From a plasmid: a DNA stretch of 64,000 nt. The position numbers and the translations under genes were made by a program. Numbering within the stretch: position 1 is the stretch's first letter; each line of letters begins with the position of its first letter. The stretch is taken from sequence record CP121101.1. One strand, 5' to 3'. A model generated the notes under the pieces. The model did no database searches, had not been told where the DNA came from, and saw nothing but the letters and a program-made list of their open reading frames with translations. Of the stretch, positions 14,999 through 31,716 are shown in pieces.

Positions 14999-16401
14999 CT
15001 AAAGCTTCATTACCTTTTTCCTACGGCTTCCCGCCGCCGCCCGGTTCCAGTCATCCCGCTTATTGCTCTCAATTGATTCCCTTCCTGCTTCCCACGTTCC
15101 GCTGAAAAAATTGGCATCATCTGTTCTACCAACAGCGATTAAGGGGGTTACCAATCGTGAGAAATACACCCTCTTGTGAATCTGAGCCGCAACTTCAAGC
15201 GGCGATCGAGAAGAAGAGAGCATTTTTTTCAATCTGGCGATAGTGTCTGCGTTATCCCTATACCAGAAAGTGACACGAAGATGAGCCGGTTTAAGCGGTA
15301 TAGAGCGGAGAATCGTTTCAAATTCTGACTGTTTGCTTTTGCGTGGGTCATGGCTCGCGATTTGACGCAGCAGTGCGGCATCGGCATCACGCGCCACGAT
15401 TCAAACACCTTAGCTAGGCTGGTCAATTTGCGATCATCGCCCCCCTTGAGCAGGAGGCGAGCGCCGGCCGGTGACTTCTTGGCAGCCTTACGCAATCCTG
15501 ACATTATCCGCTCAACAGCATCCAGGTTGGCTGATAGCCACTCTTTAGGCTTGGTTCTGGCGGATGGACTCGTACTTGATGCCGTAAAACTGAGCCCTTG
15601 CAGTTCCTCCGCCACCTCAGTGCTATACGCCTTACCGCGACCCCGCTTTCTGGGCACATCGATTACTGGAAGTGTAAGGTCCGAATTTGCTACAGACCGA
15701 GCATCCCCGATTGAATGCGATTTAAAGTGAATTTCCGTTGAAAGTGTGAGTCGTTCATCACTTTCCTTTGACTTCACATTTCGATATTTAATATCGACAT
15801 CGATCAGTCCCGCACTCAGAAGTTCGTTAAGGGCCAATGAGAGTTGCCGGCGATCATTGTGGTTGTGCCGACCAGTCTCGCGTGGATGGATTTCACGCAG
15901 GAGCTCAAGAACCGTCATGGGCCGCAGATTCAGAAACACCCTGCGCCCCATTAGCTTGCCTGGCCTAGCTGCGATCCATAGAGCTAGCAGGCGAGCCATC
16001 TGAGAGTTCAACTGAATGACTGCACTTCGATTTATTGGGACGAGCTTTTTAGTGCTCAGATACAAGGTTCGCAGCTCTGGGGTCGGAGATATTTCGATGG
16101 TCCCATCAGGTTCCAACCTCAGAGTACCAACGATATTCGCAATCATGACCGATCTCTTTCGGCTAGTCTCATCCGCATCATCGAGCGTTGGGTAAAATAG
16201 AAGAGCAACGCTCTTTAGCCTTGCAAGCGAATCGACGATTTTTTTGTCCAACAGGTAATCTGACGGCCGCATATCCTCAGGAATCGGTGAGAAAAATCGC
16301 TCTATGGTCATACGAATTGGCTTGATGATGGCTTGCTCAAACCTCTCCTTTGACAGGCGCCCTAACCAATGAGTGATGCAGATATAAGAGACAAAATCCA
16401 T
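14999..16401 (-). CDS. putative plasmid replication initiator (Rep), ~465 aa, reconstructed across an apparent frameshift near 15380-15397
   Basis: two overlapping ORFs (15229-16401 and 14999-15397) in adjacent frames; basic, winged-helix-like protein immediately adjacent to an iteron array; exact family not recognised. Confidence 0.55.
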
Positions 16402-16972: not shown

Positions 16973-17068
16973 GCGTCACCCCCCAACCTGTGCATATGCT
17001 GAATATAACCTGTTCAAAAGCTGTTTATAACCTGTTATCACCTGACAAAATAGTCTCGATAGAGACTC

Positions 17069-17222
17069 CGCGGCATAGTAGATAAGAGACCACGGCATAG
17101 TAGATAGCATATCACGGCATATAACATAGAGCATCACGGCATAGCATATAGAGCATCACGGCATAGTACATAGAGGAACGCGGCATATAACATAGCAGTG
17201 CACGGCATATTACATAAAACAG
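17069..17222. repeat. iteron array: 7 direct repeats with 22-bp periodicity, core CACGGCATA-N2-ACATAG
   Basis: copies at ~17070, 17091, 17113, 17135, 17157, 17179 and 17201. Confidence 0.8.
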
Positions 17223-17600
17223 AAAAAAGCCATATACATCACTAAGTTACAACCACCCCATCTTTAAAGATCTTTAACAGATCAAAGATATTAAAAGATC
17301 AGTAGATCAAGAGATCAAAAAAAAGAGATCAATGATCTATAATAAGTTGCAGTCGATCTCTTCTCGTTAGGATCCATTTTCGGATTCACAATCCGTTCGC
17401 AGCCCCTGAGCAAGCCTGATTTGAGCCCTAGACAGCTCTCAGATGGAAAGTAGACCCCGTGGCAATACGTTGGTATACCCCGGTGATGAGCGCCCTATAA
17501 ACCGCAATTCCAGCGATTTTATGACTGGGTGAATAACCGCTTAAAAACCGTCCCATCCTATCGGATCCAGACCATAGATCTACTGGATCCAACGTGGATC
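17223..17600. promoter_or_regulatory. putative oriV: AT-rich stretch with a cluster of GATC (Dam) sites (17260-17345) and four GGATCCA/TGGATCCA DnaA-box-like repeats (17368-17600)
   Basis: aagatctttaacagatcaaagatattaaaagatcagtagatcaagagatcaaaaaaaagagatcaatgatctat; ggatccattttc, tcggatccag, ctggatccaacgtggatccatttttt. Confidence 0.55.
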
Positions 17601-17850
17601 CATTTTTTAACAGGACCTCGTTTACCTCACACCATCAATAACCTACAGCTAATCGTTCAGTTCAAGCTTTTCGCTGTAGATCCAAGACACGTTGACCCCA
17701 TACTCTGAACTAGATCCTTAGCAGGGTATGCAAGGATCGATGATCTGAAGATAAAGCGACACAAACAGACGTCCTGAGTTTAAAACACGGTCTCATTCAG
17801 CATCTTCAAGATCCGATTGGGGTAACATATGCCTTTCGATTCGGAGGTAT

Positions 17851-19448
17851 TTGATGAGGACCTTAGCAAGGAAAGGCGATCCCACCAGCACTGGCGGTGC
17901 GATCCAAGACGGGGACAGCAGCTGGCTCAGCGAAGGCTCCCCAACCACCTATATCGGGATGATAGCGACCTGCCCAGCTTGCAAAGTCGGACAGGGCCCT
18001 ATCGTCGCCGTGGGCCCCCGCTCCATCATCGGCCCGGGCGGGCCGGTAGCACTGCAGGGCGATTATGTCGCTTGCGGCTGCCCGCCTATGAGCAACACCA
18101 TACTCCCCGCCCAGGGGACGACAGTCGGCGACAACAAAGGGCCTCGAGCGAAAGCAGCCAGCGCCCCAGCAGAACCACCAGCGCCAGCACCGGCCAGTTC
18201 GCCGGCGACCCCTCTTGTCCCGTTGGTTGACCCCGAGGAACACCGGATCGGCATCTTCTTCGATGGCACCCAGAACAACAGGCACAACAGCGAGCTCAGG
18301 GAGCAATGTGAAGAGGCAAGCGAGGCGGCCTGCAAATCCATAGAGAAGCTGATAGGCACTGAATCCTCATACGACGGCGGCCCAACCAACATGCCCCCGG
18401 CTGCATCAAGCCTATACCGGCCCAGCAATCTACATCGAGGGGATCGGCACTGCTGCCGGCAAGGCTGACACAAAGATCGACATGGCTTTCGGTACCGGTG
18501 CAACTGGCGTCATAGCCAGGTCAAAGGAAGGCCTGGCCAAGATCAGCACCATGATCGCCAGCCTACCCGCCGGCCCGGTAGCTGTGGATGTCTTCGGCTT
18601 TAGCCGGGGCGCTGCAGCTGCGCGACATTTCGTGAACATCCTTCTGGAATCGAACCTGGGGCGCCAGGTGCACGTCGCATTCGTTGGCCTCTTCGATACC
18701 GTAGCAGCCATAGGCCTGGACGCCAGCAATGACGAGAATGCGCCAGTTCGCCTCTACATTGCTCCCGGGGCCGCGGAGAAGGTTGTCCAGCTCGCCGCCA
18801 AGGACGAGTACCGGCTCAATTTTGCGCTTAACTCCGTACAGCCAGACCACACGGAACTCCCGCTATTCGGTACTCATAGCGACGTTGGCGGCGGGTATCT
18901 AGACCAAGTTGAGAAGACGCCAATCATGCGCCCCTATGATGCCATCCTGAAATTTGGTGATGACGCAGCCTATAAGAGATTCCAGGCTGCAGCCAACGCC
19001 AGGCTCCAGGAGGAAGCTATCCCTCTATACAAGGGATATGCGAAAGACAGCAGCCAAATAAAGCCGACCATCAGCTCTTTCTCCGTCGTATCCAAGAGCG
19101 ACGCGCCAATGGTGGGCTATGTGGCCAACGCGATCATGACGCGCACGGTCAAACCTGAACTGCAGCTGCTCGCCGGCCACCTTATGCAGACTATCGCGCA
19201 GGAAAGCGGAGCGCCGCTCACCCCCCTGTCTGAGCCGGTTCCCGGGGCGCTGGCCTTCTTGTTCGACAAGTACCTGGGCCTGTGGCATGGAAGCGGTGAC
19301 CTCAAACTGTCCAAGGAGCAAAACGAGATGCTGATGACGGAGTATGTTCACTGCTCCGATAACTGGACGCCGCTCGGCCCCCTCTACGTGAACGCCCCGC
19401 CCCTAGTAGGGTTCGTCGCGTCTACCAGCAAACACCAGGGAAGTGACC
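17851..19448 (+). CDS. T6SS specialised effector: N-terminal PAAR domain, Pro/Ala linker and DUF2235 (Tle1-family alpha/beta-hydrolase phospholipase) toxin domain. An apparent 1-bp insertion in a C5 run sits at ~18410. The 3' end is uncertain, as the reading frame continues into the downstream lipoprotein.
   Basis: ARKGDPTSTGGAIQDGD...ALQGDYVACGCPP (PAAR); GIFFDGTQNN, IYIEGIGTAAG, GFSRGAAAARHF (GxSxG) and GTHSDVGGGY are DUF2235 hallmarks. Confidence 0.75.
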
Positions 19449-19450
19449 TT

Positions 19451-19735
19451 ATGAAGCGAATAGTCAGTGTCCTAGCCCTCCCCCTCGCACTTGCAGCTTG
19501 TGGCGATACCCAGGAGAAGAAACAGCCCCGTAAGCCGCCAGAGGAGCGGGTGATCAGTGAGCCAGCTCATGGATTTGGCGTCCTTTTTGGCAAGCCAAAC
19601 CCCGATTACACACCGCCAGGGAGGCTAGTTGATAGCCCGGACTTTAAAGTGACTCTCCCAGAGGACCGCTGGGAAGAGGTCACTATCAGCAAAAAAGAGG
19701 GCAAGCCAAGCGCGGCGGCAGGTGTAGATAAGTGA
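19451..19735 (+). CDS. candidate immunity protein 1: small lipoprotein (MKRIVSVLALPLALAACGD lipobox), 94 aa, in-frame with the effector ORF as sequenced
   Basis: classic SPaseII signal peptide preceded by a GGGAAG Shine-Dalgarno sequence; HGFGVLFGKP motif shared with the next ORF. Confidence 0.5.
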   Translation: MKRIVSVLALPLALAACGDTQEKKQPRKPPEERVISEPAHGFGVLFGKPNPDYTPPGRLVDSPDFKVTLPEDRWEEVTISKKEGKPSAAAGVDK

Positions 19736-19974
19736 GAGCTCGCTGGGCTGTCACTCTCCTGGCGACAGTAGGGGTCTTGGCCATAGCCACCCTGTTTTAC
19801 ACTAGGTCAGATCTACCGAAGGCGGAAAGGCCAGGTATCACCTCCTCCAGTCATGGAGTGGGTGTCCTGTTAGGTTCGCCACAGTACCAGGTGAAAGGTG
19901 AGCTGGTGGAGGGGGGCTTTCTGGATAAGCAGCTGGACGAGAAGGGCAGTACGGAATTGGACGAATACCAGTGA
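19732..19974 (+). CDS. candidate immunity protein 2 (paralogue): 80-aa N-terminally membrane-anchored protein, GTG start overlapping the previous stop (GTGA)
   Basis: TM helix AVTLLATVGVLAIATLFY; motif SSHGVGVLLGSP parallels EPAHGFGVLFGKP in ORF 19451-19735. Confidence 0.5.
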   Translation: MRARWAVTLLATVGVLAIATLFYTRSDLPKAERPGITSSSHGVGVLLGSPQYQVKGELVEGGFLDKQLDEKGSTELDEYQ

Positions 19975-20003
19975 CACTAGGCCGGCCAGCTGCAATGATG
20001 AAC

Positions 20004-20022
20004 CAATCAATCAATCAATCAA
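20004..20022. repeat. tetranucleotide microsatellite (CAAT)4-5 immediately upstream of the RBS of ORF 20035-20409
   Basis: accaatcaatcaatcaatcaac. Confidence 0.8.
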
Positions 20023-20034
20023 CACGGAGGGCAA

Positions 20035-20409
20035 GTGATGTCCTTTACTGCGATCACCCTTGAGGCCGCCCTGGCCATTGAGCCGGCCAAGCTATCTGGC
20101 GTCATAGACGGGGTACCGGTCAACCCGGCCAAGCCACCAGCCAGAGACATCAAGCACGACGAGCGTGAGCCCGAAGAAATGATTCTGTGGTGGCGCCAAC
20201 CGTACCTGCAATGGAATAGCAATGGGCACTGGGATGTTAGATGCCTCGATGGCGGCGCATGGGATCGCCCCACGTTCATAGGTAACCATGAAGAGCTGGC
20301 CGGTGCCATAGAGCTGGCCAAGAAGCCTACCCGCGCCTATGCCATAGGGGAGCGGCAGGCCCTGGAGAGCGGCGAAGCCCTAATGAGATCGCTGGGGCTT
20401 GATGAATGA
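20035..20409 (+). CDS. hypothetical protein, 124 aa (GTG 20035 or ATG 20038; SD GGAGGG at 20026)
   Basis: ORF with good RBS; no family recognised. Confidence 0.55.
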   Translation: MMSFTAITLEAALAIEPAKLSGVIDGVPVNPAKPPARDIKHDEREPEEMILWWRQPYLQWNSNGHWDVRCLDGGAWDRPTFIGNHEELAGAIELAKKPTRAYAIGERQALESGEALMRSLGLDE

Positions 20410-20479
20410 GCCAAGGGCGCCACATAGGCGCCCTTGTTCTGAGATGAAAACAAGCAGTAAGCTTAACTTTGGTAGGGCA

Positions 20480-20716
20480 CTATAAGCTCAGAGCCCTGAC
20501 AATCGCCCGTTTCGCATCTGTCCTAGTAAGGGCCTTAATAGTATGTGTGGCCCTGCTCAGTCTTGGGGCTAGAGTGACGTGACAAAATGGAATGACGCCG
20601 GCTAGATCACTGGTCACCACATGGGATCCCGGAGTCCAGTAAAACTCGTCGCCCCTACACACCCAACAATGCCTCCCATCAAGCTCGCCGGTGTACTCTA
20701 AATCGGATTGCCTCAT
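20480..20716 (-). CDS. hypothetical small Cys-containing protein, 78 aa (weak call)
   Basis: ORF only. Confidence 0.25.
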   Translation of the reverse strand: MRQSDLEYTGELDGRHCWVCRGDEFYWTPGSHVVTSDLAGVIPFCHVTLAPRLSRATHTIKALTRTDAKRAIVRALSL

Positions 20717-25683: not shown

Positions 25684-28371
25684 ATGGCCGTCAATCAGAC
25701 CAAAATCTCCGATGACTTGAAAGCGTTGGTCAACGCACCTGACAAATCCGAATTTATCTTTGGCTTTATGGCCGCCTATGGGCTGCCCAAGGCCACGATC
25801 ACGCATATCAAGCAAGGGGGAAATCGCAACCTGGCCAAAGAAGCGGGCCACGTTGGCATCAACTCAAAGTTCTACTTTCAGCCGGTGAATGAAGGGACCG
25901 ACATCGAGCTCCTTTTTGAACAGCGGATTGCAGCGTGTGCCAGCACCAAGCACAAATACCGCTTCGTCATCCTCACCGATTTTGTTCGCTTCCTCGCGTG
26001 GGACGTTCTGACTGAGGAGAGACTCGATACTGAGCTCGGCGAACTGTTCCGCGAATATGGTTTCTTCCTACCCTTAGCAGGCCTTGAGAAGGCGATTCTG
26101 GGTGCCGAGAACCCAGCCGATGTGAAAGCTGCCGAGAAGATGGGCAAGCTCTTCGATCTCATCAAGAGCCTCAACGAATTGAGTAGACCTGAGGATATTC
26201 ATGCCCTCAACGTATTTCTGACGAGGCTGTTATTTTGCCTGTTTGCCGAAGATACGGGGATTTTCGAAAAGGGTCAGTTTACCTCTGCCATCAAGGGCTA
26301 CACAGAAGACGATGGCAACAACCTCGATCAGTTCCTGAGTGACTTATTCGCTGTCATGAATAGCGAACCCAATAGTGACTTGCGCAAAAATCTGCCGTCT
26401 CATCTGGCAGCCTTCCCCTATGTAAACGGTGGGCTGTTCGCGGTGGATGAACCCATCCCGTCGCTTGGCAAGCAGGGCCGCAAGATCCTGCTGGAATGCT
26501 GCATGATGAACTGGGGGGAGATCAACCCGGATATCTTCGGTTCAATGTTCCAGGCGGTGATTGATGTCGAGCAGCGCGGGAATTTGGGCCAGCACTACAC
26601 CTCGTATAGCAACATCATGAAGGTGATCCAGCCACTGTTTCTGGATTCACTGCGGGCCGAGTTGGAAAAGAATCGAAAAAGTACCAATGGCCTCAAGAAA
26701 CTGCTGGTGCGGTTGGGTAACATCAAAGTTTTCGATCCCGCCTGTGGTTCGGGTAACTTTCTGATCGTCGCTTATAAAGAGTTGCACACACTTGAGCGGA
26801 TGATCATTCAAGCCCTACAACAGCTTGAACCACAGCAGGGCTTCTCCATGAGCAGCCTGCACCTTGATCAGTTCTATGGTATTGAGATAGACGACTTCGC
26901 CTGTGAAATCGCCCGCCTTGCACTCTGGCTGGCCGAACATCAGCTTAACAAGCAGTGGGAGCAAACCTTTGGTTATGCACGCCCAGCGCTACCGCTGAGA
27001 TCATCCGGCAATATCGTGAGCGGTAACAGCCTAGTGCTGGATTGGCATAACGTTTGTCCCAAAGGCATTGAGGATGAAGTCTATGTGATCGGCAATCCAC
27101 CTTTCTTGGGAACATTGGGACGCAGCGATGAACAGCGATCCAATATGCAGGCAGTATTTGGTGATGTCGTTTTGGGTACTATGGATTTTGTCGCCTGTTG
27201 GTTCTGGAAGGGAGCTAAGTACATCCAGAACTCCTTCGCTGAGCTGGCATTGGTCTCAACGAACTCTATCTGCCAAGGTGAGCAGGTGGCTGCACTCTGG
27301 CCTCCAATTTTTAACTTGGGGCTGAATATTCACTTCGCTTATCCGACCTTCCCGTGGGCTAACAATGCACGTGACAAGGCAGCAGTCCATGTCGTTATTG
27401 TAGGTCTTTCCGCAAGGGACAAATCGAGACGGTTATTTCAATTTGTTAATGGTGAATGGCATAGCTACAACGTCAGCAATATCAGTCCCTACCTGGTGAA
27501 AGGCAGCAATATCGCTATAGCACCACGAAACAAGCCACTTACAGAGGGCATTCCACCACTAAGTAACGGTAGTAAACCTACGGATAACGGTCATCTGTTT
27601 CTAAATAGGGAAGAATATGATGAACTGCTAAAGATTGAACCTCAGGCTAAACGCTGGATCAAAAAATTCTTGGGTGCAGACGAGTTTTTGAACGCTAAAG
27701 AGCGCTGGTGCTTGTGGCTAGCTGGCGCTACCGAAGAAGACTTACGGGGTATGCCTATAGTTCAAAAGCGGGTGGAAGCGGTACGAGTCTTTCGTCTTGC
27801 AAGTACAAAAGAAAATACGGTTAAACGAGCAGAGATTCCCCATCTATTCGATCAGGACAGGCAACCAACCTCAGGAAGTTATATTCTGATGCCTCGCGTT
27901 TCATCATCAGAGCGTCGTACCTATGTTCCATTAGGGTTTTACAGCGTTGATGTCATTTCATCTGATCGCAACTTCATCCTTCCCAATGGTTCGCTCTATG
28001 AGTTTGGAGTTCTTTCATCTCTGATTCATAACGATTGGATGCGACTGGTAGCCATGCGTCTTAAAAGCGATTACAGCTACGGAAATAAGGTTGTATATAA
28101 CACATTCCCTTGGCCAACAGCGTCTATTGCTCAACAGACAGAAATAGAACGGATAGCGGAAGAATTGCTTCTTACACGGGAAGATTACCCTGGCAAGACT
28201 TTGGCCGAACTCTATGACCCCGACAAAATGCCTGCTGGGCTGCTTGAAGCACACCGGGCACTGGATAGCGCTGTCGATAAGCTATATCGGGATCGCCCCT
28301 TTAAGGATGCTGCGGAGCGGGTAAGCCATCTGCTCGGGCTCTATGAAAAGCTAACCGCTGCTACCCTCTAG
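25684..28371 (+). CDS. MmeI-family Type IIL (IIG) restriction-modification enzyme: single polypeptide with N-terminal PD-ExK-like nuclease region, gamma-class N6-adenine methyltransferase (motif I DPACGSGNF, motif IV NPPF) and C-terminal TRD; 895 aa
   Basis: collinear conservation with MmeI: KAAEKMGKLFD, LTRLLFCLFAEDTGIFEK, LAAFPYVNGGLF, RGNLGQHYTS, VFDPACGSGNFL, DQFYGIEID, VIGNPPFLG, WCLWLAGA, YNTFPWP, LAELYDPDKMPAGLLEAHRALDSAVDKLY. Confidence 0.85.
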   Translation: MAVNQTKISDDLKALVNAPDKSEFIFGFMAAYGLPKATITHIKQGGNRNLAKEAGHVGINSKFYFQPVNEGTDIELLFEQRIAACASTKHKYRFVILTDFVRFLAWDVLTEERLDTELGELFREYGFFLPLAGLEKAILGAENPADVKAAEKMGKLFDLIKSLNELSRPEDIHALNVFLTRLLFCLFAEDTGIFEKGQFTSAIKGYTEDDGNNLDQFLSDLFAVMNSEPNSDLRKNLPSHLAAFPYVNGGLFAVDEPIPSLGKQGRKILLECCMMNWGEINPDIFGSMFQAVIDVEQRGNLGQHYTSYSNIMKVIQPLFLDSLRAELEKNRKSTNGLKKLLVRLGNIKVFDPACGSGNFLIVAYKELHTLERMIIQALQQLEPQQGFSMSSLHLDQFYGIEIDDFACEIARLALWLAEHQLNKQWEQTFGYARPALPLRSSGNIVSGNSLVLDWHNVCPKGIEDEVYVIGNPPFLGTLGRSDEQRSNMQAVFGDVVLGTMDFVACWFWKGAKYIQNSFAELALVSTNSICQGEQVAALWPPIFNLGLNIHFAYPTFPWANNARDKAAVHVVIVGLSARDKSRRLFQFVNGEWHSYNVSNISPYLVKGSNIAIAPRNKPLTEGIPPLSNGSKPTDNGHLFLNREEYDELLKIEPQAKRWIKKFLGADEFLNAKERWCLWLAGATEEDLRGMPIVQKRVEAVRVFRLASTKENTVKRAEIPHLFDQDRQPTSGSYILMPRVSSSERRTYVPLGFYSVDVISSDRNFILPNGSLYEFGVLSSLIHNDWMRLVAMRLKSDYSYGNKVVYNTFPWPTASIAQQTEIERIAEELLLTREDYPGKTLAELYDPDKMPAGLLEAHRALDSAVDKLYRDRPFKDAAERVSHLLGLYEKLTAATL

Positions 28372-28377
28372 CCAATT

Positions 28378-30430
28378 TTGACAAGGATTCAAGCATGGAA
28401 ATTCATCTTGCAAGTGACCTATGCCCAGAACGGGCAGAGCTCGGCGCTTAACGGCATGGGAATGCGGGAGATGCAGGCCCGCGCCTTCGCTCAACGCAAC
28501 AGCCCCTATCTGCTTATCAAAGCGCCACCCGCCTGCGGTAAATCCCGTGCACTGATGTTTTTGGGGCTGGACAAGCTGCTCAATCAAGGTCTGCGCAAAG
28601 TCATCGTCGCGGTGCCTGAGATGTCTATCGGCGCATCGTTTAAAGACACTGCGTTGACCGAATACGGATTCTTTGCGAACTGGCAGGTTAAACCTGAAAA
28701 CAATCTCTGCATTCATGGCGGTGAAAAGAGCAAGGTGGCCGCATTTAAGCGTTTTATGGAGAGTGATGACCAGATCCTTGTCTGCACCCACGCCACTCTG
28801 CGTTTCGCTTTTGACGAGGTAGATATCGCCTCGTTTAACGATTGCCTGATTGCCATCGACGAGTTTCACCATGTTTCCGCCAGTGAAGATAGCCGCCTCG
28901 GAGCGCGCTACTCGACGGCTTAATCCAGCAGTCCAATGCACATATCGTTGCCATGACGGGATCTTATTTCCGTGGCGATACTGTGCCTATCCTGACACCA
29001 GAGGATGAAGCCAAGTTTACCAAGGTCACCTACACCTATTACGAACAACTGAATGGCTATGAGCACCTGAAATCCCTCGGCATTGGTTACCATTTTTATC
29101 AGGGTAAATACATCGGTGCTCTGCCTTCGGTGTTAAACGCTTTCCTGAAAACCATTATTTACATCCCGAACGTGAATTCTAGTGAGTCCACCAAGGACAA
29201 ATATACCGAGGTCGATGCGATCTTGGATGTGCTGGGCGAGGTGCAGTCGAAAGATCCCGACACTGGCATCTACTTGGTGAAACGACATGAAGATGGCAAG
29301 CTGCTCAAAGTAGCCAATCTGGTGGATGACGATAATGAACGCCCCAAGGTGCAGGCTTATTTGCGCACCATTCAATCGGCTGATGATATGGACATCATCA
29401 TTGCTGGCTTGGCATGGCAAAAGAAGGCTTTGACTGGCCCTATTGCGAGCATGTGCTGACCATTGGCTATCGCAGTTCGCTGACCGAAGTCGTGCAGATC
29501 ATCGGTCGTGCGACCCGTGATTGTCCTGGTAAGACCCACGCTCAGTTCACGAACCTGATTGCCCAGCCCGATGCCCAGGATGACGATGTGAAGGTGTCGG
29601 TCAACAACATGCTCAAGGCGATCACGACATCCCTGCTGATGGAGCAGATCCTAGCCCCCAGTATTCAGTTTAAGCCTCGCTCGCAGTGGACTGGGGAGGC
29701 ATTGCCACCCAATACCGTGCTCGTTGGTGATGCGACCGTGCCGGTCTCGCAAACAGTGTTAGATATTCTCAATGGTGGCAAAGAGGAGATCCTGGCTGCA
29801 CTGATGGCCAAGGAGAAGGTGGTCAAAGAGGCAATTACTGAAACAGCTCCGCCCGAGGTATTTACTCAGTTAGAACTGCCCTCGGTCATTCAGGAGCTCT
29901 ACCCCGATCTATTGCCCCATGAGATAGAGCAAGTTCGTTCCGGCCTGCTACAAAGCATGTATATCAATCAACAGGGAGGGCTGATCAATGAGAGTGACTT
30001 GCCTCCCGATGCCGAGATTGTAGGAAGCCCGAACCCCACCTCTATCGGAGGGGCAAGCCCCGATGCCGCCAAGGATCAAGCAACCGCCAGTAAGCAGTTC
30101 TTAAAAATCGGCGAGAAGTTTATCAACATCGACAACCTGAGCATCGACCTGATCGAATCGGTTAACCCGTTCCACGGGGCCTATGAAATCCTCTCCAAAT
30201 CCGTGACGGCCACCATGCTCAAGACCATTCAGGAAGCGGTCAGCGCCAGCAAGTCACAACTCTCCGAGGAGGAGGCCGTCATGCTATGGCCGAGGATCAA
30301 GGAGTTTACTCAGCAAAACCAGCGTGCGCCTTCGTTGCATGCACCTGATCCCATCGAGGTACGACTGGCAGAAGCGCTGGCCTACATCAAACAGAAGAAA
30401 CAACAATCTGCGGCTAAACAGGAGGACTAA
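28378..30430 (+). CDS. SF2 helicase with ResIII-type N-terminal ATPase domain (~680 aa), reconstructed across two apparent frameshifts (~28920-28955 and ~29415-29460); ~270-aa C-terminal extension of unknown function
   Basis: Q-motif/Walker A QARAFAQRNSPYLLIKAPPACGKS, motif II AIDEFHHV, motif III SAS, helicase-C motifs IIAGL.KEGFDWP and motif VI QIIGRATR; 6-nt gap to the upstream MmeI-like gene. Confidence 0.7.
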
Positions 30431-30433
30431 GTA

Positions 30434-31716
30434 ATGATCCTGTTGCGATCGCATCAGCTCAAACCCAAAGCGTCTCTTGAAGATATCTTTGCCGAAGACG
30501 ATGTATTGGGTCTGCTCGATGTAGAGCCCCTAAAACCGAAAAGCGCGCCAGTTGACCTAGTGAGCAACCAGTTTGGGGATATCGTGGCGTTTTTTGAACA
30601 ACACGGTAGAGCCCCCCAAAACTCGACCTGTGCCGATATGCCCGAGAAGCGTCTTGCAAGGCGCTTGCAGGCGATACGCACGGATCCAAAGCAATGCAGT
30701 GCCCTTTCAGGTCAGGATATCCATGGTCTGCTGGCAGACATAGAAGTAGTGGGGATGGTTGCCGAGGAGCATGAGCAATATCCTGCCAGGGGAGTAGGTG
30801 TTGAGACTGTTAATGCACCCACCGTTGATACGTCGGAGCTGGTGACCTCGCTTGACGATATTTTTGCCGATGATGACCTCGGGTTATTGGATTTTGATAC
30901 CCCTGATATTTCAGCATGCAGCATGTGCCTAGAGAGAAAAAGGAGTTACCCGACGAGATAGCCCAGCGTCAGCCCTGTCCGGATTTTTCCCGCTTTGCAC
31001 CGCTGTTTGAGACCGTGAAAGCAGGTCTGCAAGGCCAAGAGTTCTCCCTCGCGCGCTATCGAAACGAACACGGTTTTCAGGTGGGTGATTTTTTCATATT
31101 GAATGGGGTTATGGGCTATGTGCATAGTGCCGGGGAGCGGCTAGAGCAGTACGAGCGATACAACGCACGACTTCACCTGGTTTTCGATAATGGAACAGAG
31201 CTGTACATGCTCTACCAGTCACTGACCCAGGGGCTTATTCGTGACAAGGAAGGTCGTAAGGTCATGCTAGGTGACAAACTCCTCTTGCCAAATGATGCAC
31301 CTATTCCAAGCGGTTTTGTATATGTACTCGCGACAAAGAGCACTGACCCGGTATTGATGCCCTTCAAGCAAAATCTCTACAAAATAGGTTTCACCGAAAG
31401 CTCTGTTGATGAGAGGATAAAGAATGCCGAGAAGGATAGAACTTTTCTGCAAGCACCAGTCCGTATTGTGACGACTTTCCAATGCTTCAACATGAACACG
31501 CACAAGTTGGAGACCTTGGTGCACGGCTTTCTCGCCAAGCAGCGCCTCGATATAACCTTAAAAGGGCAGGATGGCACCAGCTACACCCCGAGAGAGTGGT
31601 TTTACACTCCATTGGCAACAGTTCTTGAAGTTATTCAACACATTTTGGATGGGACTATTTCGCAGTACCGAATGGACAACACCACGGGGAAGATTGTTGC
31701 CAAAAAACTTCCATAG
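30434..31716 (+). CDS. protein with N-terminal acidic repeat motif (DIFAEDDVLGLLD ... DIFADDDLGLLD) and C-terminal T5orf172 (GIY-YIG-like, PF10544) domain. It is probably one ~425-aa gene with a frameshift in an A5 run at ~30940 (ORFs 30434-30961 and 30916-31716).
   Basis: GFVYVLATKST...YKIGFTESSVDERIKNAEKDRTFLQAPVRIVTTF...THKLETLVHGFLAKQRL...PREWFYTPL matches the T5orf172 pattern; 3-nt gap after the helicase gene. Confidence 0.6.

Follow-up and report, generated by a model that had tools for sequence, protein, structure and literature searches.

A PAAR-Tle1 gene with two small paralogous partner genes on an Aeromonas resistance plasmid: a probable mobile type VI secretion effector-immunity cassette

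The locus analysed here lies on the + strand of a 64,000-nt stretch of plasmid record CP121101.1 (the window; all coordinates are window positions). It comprises a gene for a PAAR-Tle1-type lipase effector of a type VI secretion system (T6SS) (17854-19446) and two small genes, A (19451-19735) and B (19732-19974). With a probability of about 0.72, this locus was considered as a mobile orphan T6SS effector-immunity cassette on a multidrug-resistance Aeromonas plasmid, in which A is the cognate immunity protein, B is an orphan immunity protein, and the two frameshifts that interrupt the effector gene are artefactual. The plasmid origin assumed in the initial annotation was borne out by comparison with pAER-f909 of Aeromonas sp. 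ASNIH4 (NZ_CP026221.1), to which the window is 99.5-99.8% identical in blocks over most of its length (99.6% in the region of the effector locus).

The effector gene likely starts at ATG 17854 and not at TTG 17851, and the start annotated for WP_103829037.1 in pAER-f909 concurs; a Shine-Dalgarno-like GGAGG (17843-17847) can be read 6 nt upstream of this ATG, and the stop codon is TGA 19444-19446. After correction of two 1-nt indels the gene encodes a protein of 530 amino acids, devoid of signal peptide, in which three parts were delimited: a PAAR domain (PF05488, residues 7-77, 17872-18084), a disordered Pro/Ala-rich linker (residues 88-123, 18115-18222, from model confidence and composition) and a Tle1/DUF2235 alpha/beta-hydrolase lipase domain (residues 130-530, 18241-19443, which aligns with Tle1 of enteroaggregative Escherichia coli, EAEC). 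The PAAR domain was detected on the raw open reading frame (ORF) 17851-18468 with E=2e-13, and the match, which spans positions 1-67 of the 70 of the PF05488 profile, is retained on the corrected sequence (48.4-50.7 bits over the two sequences, for a cut-off of 27); searched alone against the PDB with phmmer, the PAAR region gave no match at E<=1. The Pro/Ala-rich composition is apparent at 18136-18228 (KGPRAKAASAPAEPPAPAPASSPATPLVPLV). The lipase domain matched PF09994 (T6SS_Tle1-like_cat) with E=3e-12 and 46.9 bits on the raw ORF and with 53.8 bits on the corrected protein (cut-off 27).

The best sequence match of the effector in the PDB was EAEC Tle1 (6SJL/6SKI; E=1.6e-32 over residues 132-505). 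Three motifs, GFSRG (18596-18610, with Ser250 at 18602-18604), FDTVAAIG (Asp281, 18695-18697) and HSDVGGGY (His341, 18875-18877), line up with their counterparts in EAEC Tle1. Across the 111 homologues aligned, conservation is complete for Ser250 and His341 and at least 90% for Asp281. From what is known of EAEC Tle1, we take these three residues to be the catalytic triad. An AlphaFold2 model, built with the 111-homologue alignment on a protein 98% identical to the corrected effector (P0001), had a mean predicted local distance difference test score (pLDDT) of 88. Residues 1-87 are beta-rich in this model (pLDDT 81-95), residues 88-123 are disordered (pLDDT <50), and the lipase domain is predicted with confidence. 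When the model was compared with the PDB using Foldseek, EAEC Tle1 (6sjl_E, 1.2e-28) was the best match, followed by Tle1 of P. aeruginosa (4o5p, 2e-10) and TleB (9j3f, 5e-10). The assignment as a PAAR-Tle1-type protein is thus supported by sequence, by the predicted catalytic residues and by the predicted fold. The initial annotation had described a complete PAAR domain fused through a Pro/Ala linker to a DUF2235 lipase with an intact GxSxG. Its domains, linker and motif were all recovered, and the fusion stands for the corrected 530-residue protein, where both domains exceed their cut-offs, but not for the gene as written, which is split by the two frameshifts.

As written, the effector gene consists of two ORFs in different frames. 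The first (17851-18468) holds the PAAR domain, the Pro/Ala-rich linker and the initial ~50 residues of DUF2235 (HRIGIFFDGTQNN...). The second (18482-19735) holds the remainder of DUF2235, including GFSRG, and then runs without a stop codon into lipoprotein-like sequence (MKRIVSVLALPLALAACGD...), the second frameshift (19398) joining the lipase frame in-frame to the ORF of gene A. Site 1 (18391-18396) reads ATGCCCCCGG in the window and ATTGCCCGG in pAER-f909 (net +1 nt); at site 2 (19394-19398) a run of five C is reduced to four (-1 nt). Over 2.4 kb the window and pAER-f909 differ in five places only, the differences listed being the net +1 at 18391-18395, the -1 at 19398, a single-nucleotide polymorphism at 19467 and an extra CAAT at ~20004-20022; within the effector gene, no difference was found outside the two indel sites. 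In pAER-f909 the effector is one intact coding sequence of 530 amino acids, and once a C is taken out at 18395 and another put in at 19398, the window yields a 530-residue protein identical to it except at residues 180-181.

Alignment of the whole window to pAER-f909 revealed 31 indel events placed on a 500-bp grid in window coordinates (for example 3351, 7844, 10849, 12395, 13405, 15397, 16404, 18395, 19398, 20900, 21898, 22904, 42217, 44728 and 52223...61712). The grid drifts slowly along the window, the positions modulo 500 being 344-351 at 3-11 kb, 395-405 at 12.4-22.9 kb and 211-229 at 42-62 kb, and both effector frameshifts are on it (395 and 398 modulo 500). For the ten indels located within 12-23 kb, R was 0.91 (Rayleigh p ~2.5e-4), with a CAAT microsatellite as the lone outlier. 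The phase of the grid is continuous across rearrangement junctions in window coordinates only and jumps in pAER-f909 coordinates, which places the errors in the window's own assembly. The periodic indels look like the signature of a consensus polisher working in 500-bp windows; 500 bp is the default window of the Racon software. Being on this grid, the two effector frameshifts are very probably assembly-polishing artefacts and not biology; grid indels break neighbouring genes as well (such as a 657-aa hypothetical gene, at 15397 and 16404), and as many genes are fragmented in this way, any pseudogene in the window is suspect.

These data bear on another explanation, according to which the effector is a genuine pseudogene and the locus supplies only immunity (A and B) against neighbours with intact cassettes. 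The two frameshifts in the gene as given agree with it, and effector decay is seen in relatives: in pK533-strA the 5' part of the effector was removed by a strAB transposon while the type A gene was kept intact, and in pS44-1 the effector is truncated by AAC(3). It was nevertheless judged unlikely, as was a programmed frameshift, given that the same indel grid also breaks unrelated genes, that nothing else separates the gene from the intact pAER-f909 copy, and that frameshifts are found near 19398 in a second plasmid. The latter, from A. hydrophila YURI 17 (L096, NZ_CP121796.1 59839-61725), has its effector and lipoprotein annotated as a single 629-aa "DUF2235" protein, as a result of frameshifts in the same C-rich stretch as site 2; this stretch therefore looks error-prone, and the fused annotation is probably another sequencing error carried into RefSeq. 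The initial annotation had allowed for sequence errors and for a PAAR domain that correction would leave truncated; errors are indeed the probable cause of the frameshifts, and the corrected PAAR domain is not truncated.

Gene A begins (ATG 19451) 4 nt past the effector stop codon, a gap that is the same in pAER-f909, and encodes a candidate immunity lipoprotein of 94 aa with the lipobox LAAC (Cys17 at 19499-19501). Gene B, a second mini-immunity candidate (80 aa), starts with a GTG that overlaps the TGA of gene A (GTGA overlap); its product has a basic N-terminus followed by a hydrophobic stretch of 19 residues, possibly a signal-anchor, possibly a signal that is cleaved off. The two proteins share the core HG(F/V)GVL(F/L)G.P (HGFGVLFGKP at 19568-19597 in A, HGVGVLLGSP at 19852-19881 in B), within an invariant pattern H-G-x-G...G-x-P..Y...G, and their mature length is ~60-80 residues. 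They are true paralogues, as judged from BLASTP (12/27 identities, E=1e-5) and from hhalign (probability 96%, E=3e-9, over a core of ~40 residues). The description of the pair in the initial annotation, as paralogues with this motif, one a lipoprotein and the other bearing an N-terminal hydrophobic anchor and a coupled GTG start, was thus confirmed.

Searches among 5.8 billion proteins returned 13 clusters for the protein A family, all at least 68% identical, with an invariant lipobox (L14, A16, C17, G18, D19), and 23 clusters for the protein B family. A combined A+B profile retrieved 21 hits in 1.84 billion cluster representatives and led to no wider family, the only matches outside A and B being weak ones to cadherin/Ig-like repeat proteins. 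In Pfam, neither protein matched DUF2931 (PF11153), the family of the canonical Tle1 immunity protein Tli1, even at E<=1, and neither belongs to a Pfam or NCBIfam family; NCBIfam searches with the effector, A, B and a downstream 123-aa ORF gave sub-threshold signal-peptide matches only. A and B therefore appear to form a narrow, unannotated and so far undescribed family, unrelated in sequence to Tli1. With regard to the weak matches, the core xPxHGxGV(L/I)FGxP..Y(T/Q)..G..V(D/E) (A, 19568-19660; B, 19852-19930) resembles the start of cadherin/Ig-like repeats, PxHGxV...YTPxxGxxGxDSF, found in long or giant surface proteins (P0162, P0171). This resemblance hints at a small beta-sandwich or hairpin and was retained as a lead on fold, not on homology.

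The distribution of the cassette was established from plasmid, genome and phage collections. With distant DUF2235 relatives included, the effector family is present on 129 PLSDB plasmids, of which ~80 fall in close clades (at least 58% identity), and close relatives were on mobile elements wherever the context was readable, that is, in all cases but the 95%-identical A. rivuli copy (L012), located on a 28-kb contig. The cassette is carried by at least five plasmid backbones and by P1/P7-like phage-plasmids. Its contexts are MOBH plasmids resembling integrative and conjugative elements (ICE), as here, IncU/MOBF, IncFII-RepA and MPF_F plasmids, pAsa5, IncA plasmids (pRAx, pGA_VIM, pRIVM0001_VIM-1) of E. 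coli, Citrobacter, Klebsiella, Enterobacter, Salmonella and Serratia, and P1/P7-like elements with DarA, DdrB, LydB and the C1 repressor. Three such phage-plasmid loci, which also encode a tail-fibre assembly gene, were recognised (L090, a Logan contig of SRR10842868; L103; L111), and one of them (L111, IMGVR_UViG_2847832212_000004, a 92.8-kb viral contig from IMG/VR) has a gene of the second effector clade defined below, at 100% identity; a temperate phage-plasmid can thus carry a T6SS effector-immunity pair. No close relative of the effector was found in the GenBank phage collection. Among species-representative genomes, only A. salmonicida and A. rivuli had close relatives; the remaining 77 loci are DUF2235 proteins of Bacteroidota, distant ones that were retrieved because of the FFDGTQNN pattern.

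The effectors form two clades, 62-68% identical to each other, and that of the window belongs to clade I. At every clade I locus read, a type A gene is immediately 3' of the effector at a distance of 4 nt. At every clade II locus read (pAsa5, IncA plasmids, P1-like elements), a type B gene is immediately 3' and is the sole gene in that position. Coordinate lists agree with this pairing (more than 10 clade I plasmids with A, 24 clade II plasmids with B), and the two types also differ in range: type A was found on 25 PLSDB plasmids, all from Aeromonas, and type B on 77, of which 24 are from Aeromonas and 53 from Enterobacterales. As clade I is always accompanied by A and clade II always by B, gene A is probably the cognate immunity gene, and gene B of the window probably an orphan immunity gene directed against clade II effectors.

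Further features of these loci are of the kind expected from immunity genes. At clade I loci, type B may be added after type A (the window and its counterpart pAER-f909, L001, L002, L007 and L012); plasmid pA of strain RZ6S-1 has a B-A hybrid at this place, and pAh2111-2-KPC and A. rivuli have an array of A and B plus A', a second gene of type A in variant form. At the same site in pS121-1b, a sister backbone of the window plasmid, a clade II effector with B is followed by degenerate remnants of A and B. Plasmids of pAsa4 type have kept an orphan type A gene behind a PAAR-VgrG-DUF4123-DUF2235-DUF2931 series. Coupling to the effector, envelope signals, co-variation with the effector clade, retention, and arrays or hybrids together support an immunity-like behaviour of the small genes, as far as sequence comparison can tell. 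Accordingly, the effector-immunity layout of Tle/Tli type proposed in the initial annotation is upheld by comparative genomics, with the reservations that the small proteins fall outside Tli1/DUF2931 and that the two paralogues likely have different jobs.

It was also considered that the small ORFs might not be immunity genes, and would be unrelated envelope proteins of the backbone or spurious ORFs, the true immunity gene being elsewhere or absent. Their lack of any Pfam or NCBIfam family and of any relation to DUF2931, their very small mature size and the scarcity of their family among the billions of proteins searched would fit such an explanation. It was held to be quite improbable, because A and B travel with the effector across MOBH ICE-like, IncU, IncFII, IncA, pAsa5 and P1/P7-like backbones, because their type switches exactly with the toxin clade, and because the lipobox and the core motif are invariant. 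Moreover, at distant chromosomal PAAR-Tle1 genes of Halopseudomonas and Pseudomonas, a DUF2931 gene is directly 3' of the effector, in exactly the position that A or B holds here.

The preferred interpretation, that of an effector-immunity cassette, is also in keeping with the divergence of the effector parts. Between clades the PAAR domains are 87-97% identical, whereas the lipase segments 201-240 and 361-520 are 33-49% identical between clades and 70-90% identical within each clade. For PAAR, the ratio of nonsynonymous to synonymous substitution rates (dN/dS) is 0.02-0.05 at dS>1 between clades; in some pairs of clade I and clade II effectors, dS is ~0.2 for PAAR and saturated for the lipase. 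This discordance indicates module swapping by recombination behind a conserved delivery domain. The pattern is that of polymorphic toxins, with a constrained delivery domain and toxin-plus-immunity modules exchanged behind PAAR.

No T6SS gene is present in the annotation of pAER-f909, which includes ICE-type type IV secretion genes for conjugation, TraI, TraD, PRTRC, ParAB, UmuDC, a class 1 integron and mer genes. Searches by tblastn with the PAAR, VgrG, DUF4123 and DUF2931 proteins of pAsa4 detected only the effector itself in the window and in pAER-f909, so that linkage to vgrG or to other T6SS genes is lacking in both. The absence of other T6SS genes from the window, already noticed in the initial annotation, was therefore confirmed by annotation, by the gene content of the window-specific insert (24.3-41.8 kb) and by tblastn. 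The best indirect evidence for use of the host T6SS is the strong constraint on PAAR in elements that do not themselves encode such a system.

The same absence could be taken to mean that the locus acts independently of any T6SS, either as a cell-autonomous addiction module of toxin-antitoxin type or as a virulence lipase reaching eukaryotic hosts by another route. The presence of the cassette on pAsa5, a virulence plasmid, was counted in this direction. Rhs elements are reported to act as toxin-antitoxin modules (PMC7043789), and Tle-family lipases can hit eukaryotic membranes (PMC6730261). We regard such a role as very improbable, since a PAAR dN/dS of 0.02-0.05 is hard to explain without docking to VgrG, and since an effector without signal peptide whose partners are envelope-targeted fits delivery in trans into the periplasm. 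Furthermore, pAsa4 has a bona fide PAAR-VgrG-adaptor-Tle1-Tli1 module at the same hotspot.

That module (L110, NC_009349.1 71533-77860) is a complete T6SS auxiliary module made of PAAR, VgrG, a DUF4123 adaptor, a DUF2235 Tle1 and DUF2931. It is on a conjugative plasmid, at the backbone position occupied in pAhD4-1 by the PAAR-Tle1 cassette, and the site that they share looks like a hotspot of T6SS cargo on plasmids.

For a mobile cassette dependent on the host T6SS, the following mechanism can be proposed. A T6SS encoded on the chromosome of the host would have its VgrG spike capped by the PAAR cone, the Pro/Ala linker tethering to this cone a Tle1-family phospholipase with a predicted Ser-Asp-His triad. 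Once the apparatus has fired, the lipase would act in the periplasm of a Gram-negative neighbour and break down its membrane phospholipids, by homology to EAEC Tle1. In the producer periplasm, the gene A lipoprotein, putatively coupled in translation to the effector, would bind and block the toxin. Gene B would encode a membrane-anchored or secreted paralogue, the cognate partner of the sister toxin clade (pAsa5, IncA plasmids, P1-like phage-plasmids), and in the window plasmid it would shield the host from cells armed by rival clade II elements.

Several points weigh against this interpretation. The effector gene is broken as written, and although artefact is the better explanation, it is unproven at the level of reads. 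An AlphaFold2 model of the in-window lipase-lipoprotein fusion ORF (18401-19735) had a mean pLDDT of 38, too low to inform on the immunity segment. The small proteins cannot be placed in any known immunity family, and, many of the supporting plasmids being related, the observations may amount to perhaps 8-12 independent lineages and not to dozens. When 17000-20600 was scanned for promoters and terminators, nothing resembling a sigma-70 promoter turned up upstream of the effector, and the counts were within the range expected from shuffled sequences. Secretion, lipase activity and protection are all deduced from sequence, a compatible T6SS and VgrG in the host is an assumption, and many Enterobacterales hosts of the related IncA plasmids may not have an active T6SS.

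A broader and more tentative proposal is that large resistance plasmids and phage-plasmids of Aeromonas and Enterobacterales commandeer the T6SS of their hosts with a PAAR-Tle1 of their own, and thereby kill plasmid-free segregants and cells bearing rival elements. This would constitute a contact-dependent, population-level form of addiction or exclusion, with at least two specificity groups (I/A and II/B), a private mini-immunity family, and rivals collecting each other's immunity genes. We consider it possible but doubtful at present. The plasmids that carry the effector family include IncA plasmids with VIM-1 and Aeromonas plasmids with KPC-2 or NDM. If this proposal were true, T6SS-mediated conflict between plasmids would help to shape which carbapenemase plasmids (IncA-VIM, Aeromonas KPC/NDM) persist and spread. 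More generally, a functional cassette would allow a plasmid to make its host kill plasmid-free neighbours without paying for a secretion machine, and could affect how resistance plasmids of clinical importance are maintained and compete. An immunity protein of such small size, with two specificities against a well-characterised lipase fold, would also be attractive for the study of Tle1 inhibition. In principle the cassette is unsurprising, given earlier accounts of T6SS effectors that are orphan and mobile and of T6SS islands on plasmids.

Other features surround the locus. Upstream, ~6.7 copies of a 22-bp unit (CGGCATAGTACATAGAGATCA) at 17071-17216 occupy the divergent intergenic region between the 657-aa hypothetical gene (minus strand, without Pfam match) and the effector; this array is iteron-like and may be a replication-origin, partition or regulator-binding site. 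Downstream, a (CAAT)4.8 microsatellite (20004-20022) separates the stop codon of gene B from the next ORF. The pAER-f909 copy has one unit fewer, and because the microsatellite is off the artefact grid this length polymorphism is probably genuine; immediately upstream of the repeat there is a weak promoter-like site (19971-19999). The next ORF (20038-20409, 123 aa, MSFTAITLEAALAIEP...), for which Pfam and NCBIfam gave no match, stands behind the cassette in many plasmids of Aeromonas (L001, L008, L009, L096, L099, L103, pAsa4). It was examined as a candidate immunity gene and rejected, having no export signal and being absent from the pAsa5 and IncA loci. Further away, a window-specific insert (24.3-41.8 kb) contains an MmeI-type methyltransferase/endonuclease, a fragmented helicase, a GIY-YIG nuclease and transposases. 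Within it, the block 25684-31716, absent from pAER-f909 and ~90% identical to pAsa4-type plasmids, is defence-island-like and comprises the MmeI-family protein (895 aa), the helicase-related gene in four ORFs and a GIY-YIG/T5orf172 nuclease.

Among known systems, the best solved relative of the lipase is EAEC Tle1 of the Sci-1 T6SS (PDB 6SJL/6SKI), which has the same GFSRG, Asp and His residues. It is a phospholipase A1 and A2 enzyme that reaches the periplasm of prey cells and is neutralised 1:1 by the outer-membrane lipoprotein Tli1, which, like protein A, is encoded directly downstream of the effector (PMC6730261). Unlike the present effector, EAEC Tle1 has no PAAR domain, rides on a C-terminal extension of VgrG1 and is encoded inside a T6SS cluster. 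DUF2931 is the family reported for the Tle1 immunity proteins of A. hydrophila (PMC7245790), and proteins of types A and B (80-105 aa) have no detectable similarity to it. The nearest chromosomal relatives found, the PAAR-Tle1 proteins of Halopseudomonas and Pseudomonas, are 30-35% identical to the effector, longer (610-650 aa) and paired with DUF2931. As for potential hosts, strains D4 and AHNIH1, which harbour two related plasmids, have chromosomal T6SS effector loci (PMC7245790, Table 2).

Orphan immunity gene arrays occur in T6SS auxiliary clusters, for instance those of Vibrio cholerae. The extra, hybrid or degenerate immunity genes found here behind the cognate one, and the immunity gene that outlasted the replacement of its effector module on pAsa4, can be likened to these arrays, with the differences that they are plasmid-borne and that the two toxin clades belong to competing mobile elements.

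A functional parallel is provided by PAAR1/Tsi3 and PAAR2/Tsi4 of A. hydrophila AH54, which are functional PAAR-DUF2235 effector-immunity pairs without cross-protection (PMC12396204). As here, a PAAR domain is joined by a linker to a DUF2235 domain that has GxSxG, with the immunity gene next in line downstream, and the lack of cross-protection parallels the two specificity types I/A and II/B. In contrast to the present locus, the AH54 genes are in chromosomal auxiliary clusters containing vgrG.

In the literature library that was searched, no paper describing the plasmid PAAR-Tle1 family or its small partner proteins was found. Orphan mobile cassettes are already known, and what appears to be undescribed is the mini-immunity family and the spread of the cassette over resistance plasmids and phage-plasmids. 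The MIX V effectors of Vibrionaceae are orphan mobile effector-immunity cassettes usable by a resident T6SS (PMC4549250); like the cassette described here, they are bicistronic units located away from T6SS clusters and associated with mobile elements or plasmids, their delivery domain being MIX and not PAAR. Plasmids were also reported as a reservoir of orphan T6SS islands with hcp, vgrG or PAAR (PMC13098142), in a survey centred on islands around hcp and vgrG, in which Aeromonas, Tle1 and DUF2235 are not mentioned. Compared with these islands, the present cassette is distinguished by its occurrence on clinically relevant KPC, NDM and VIM plasmids and on phage-plasmids.

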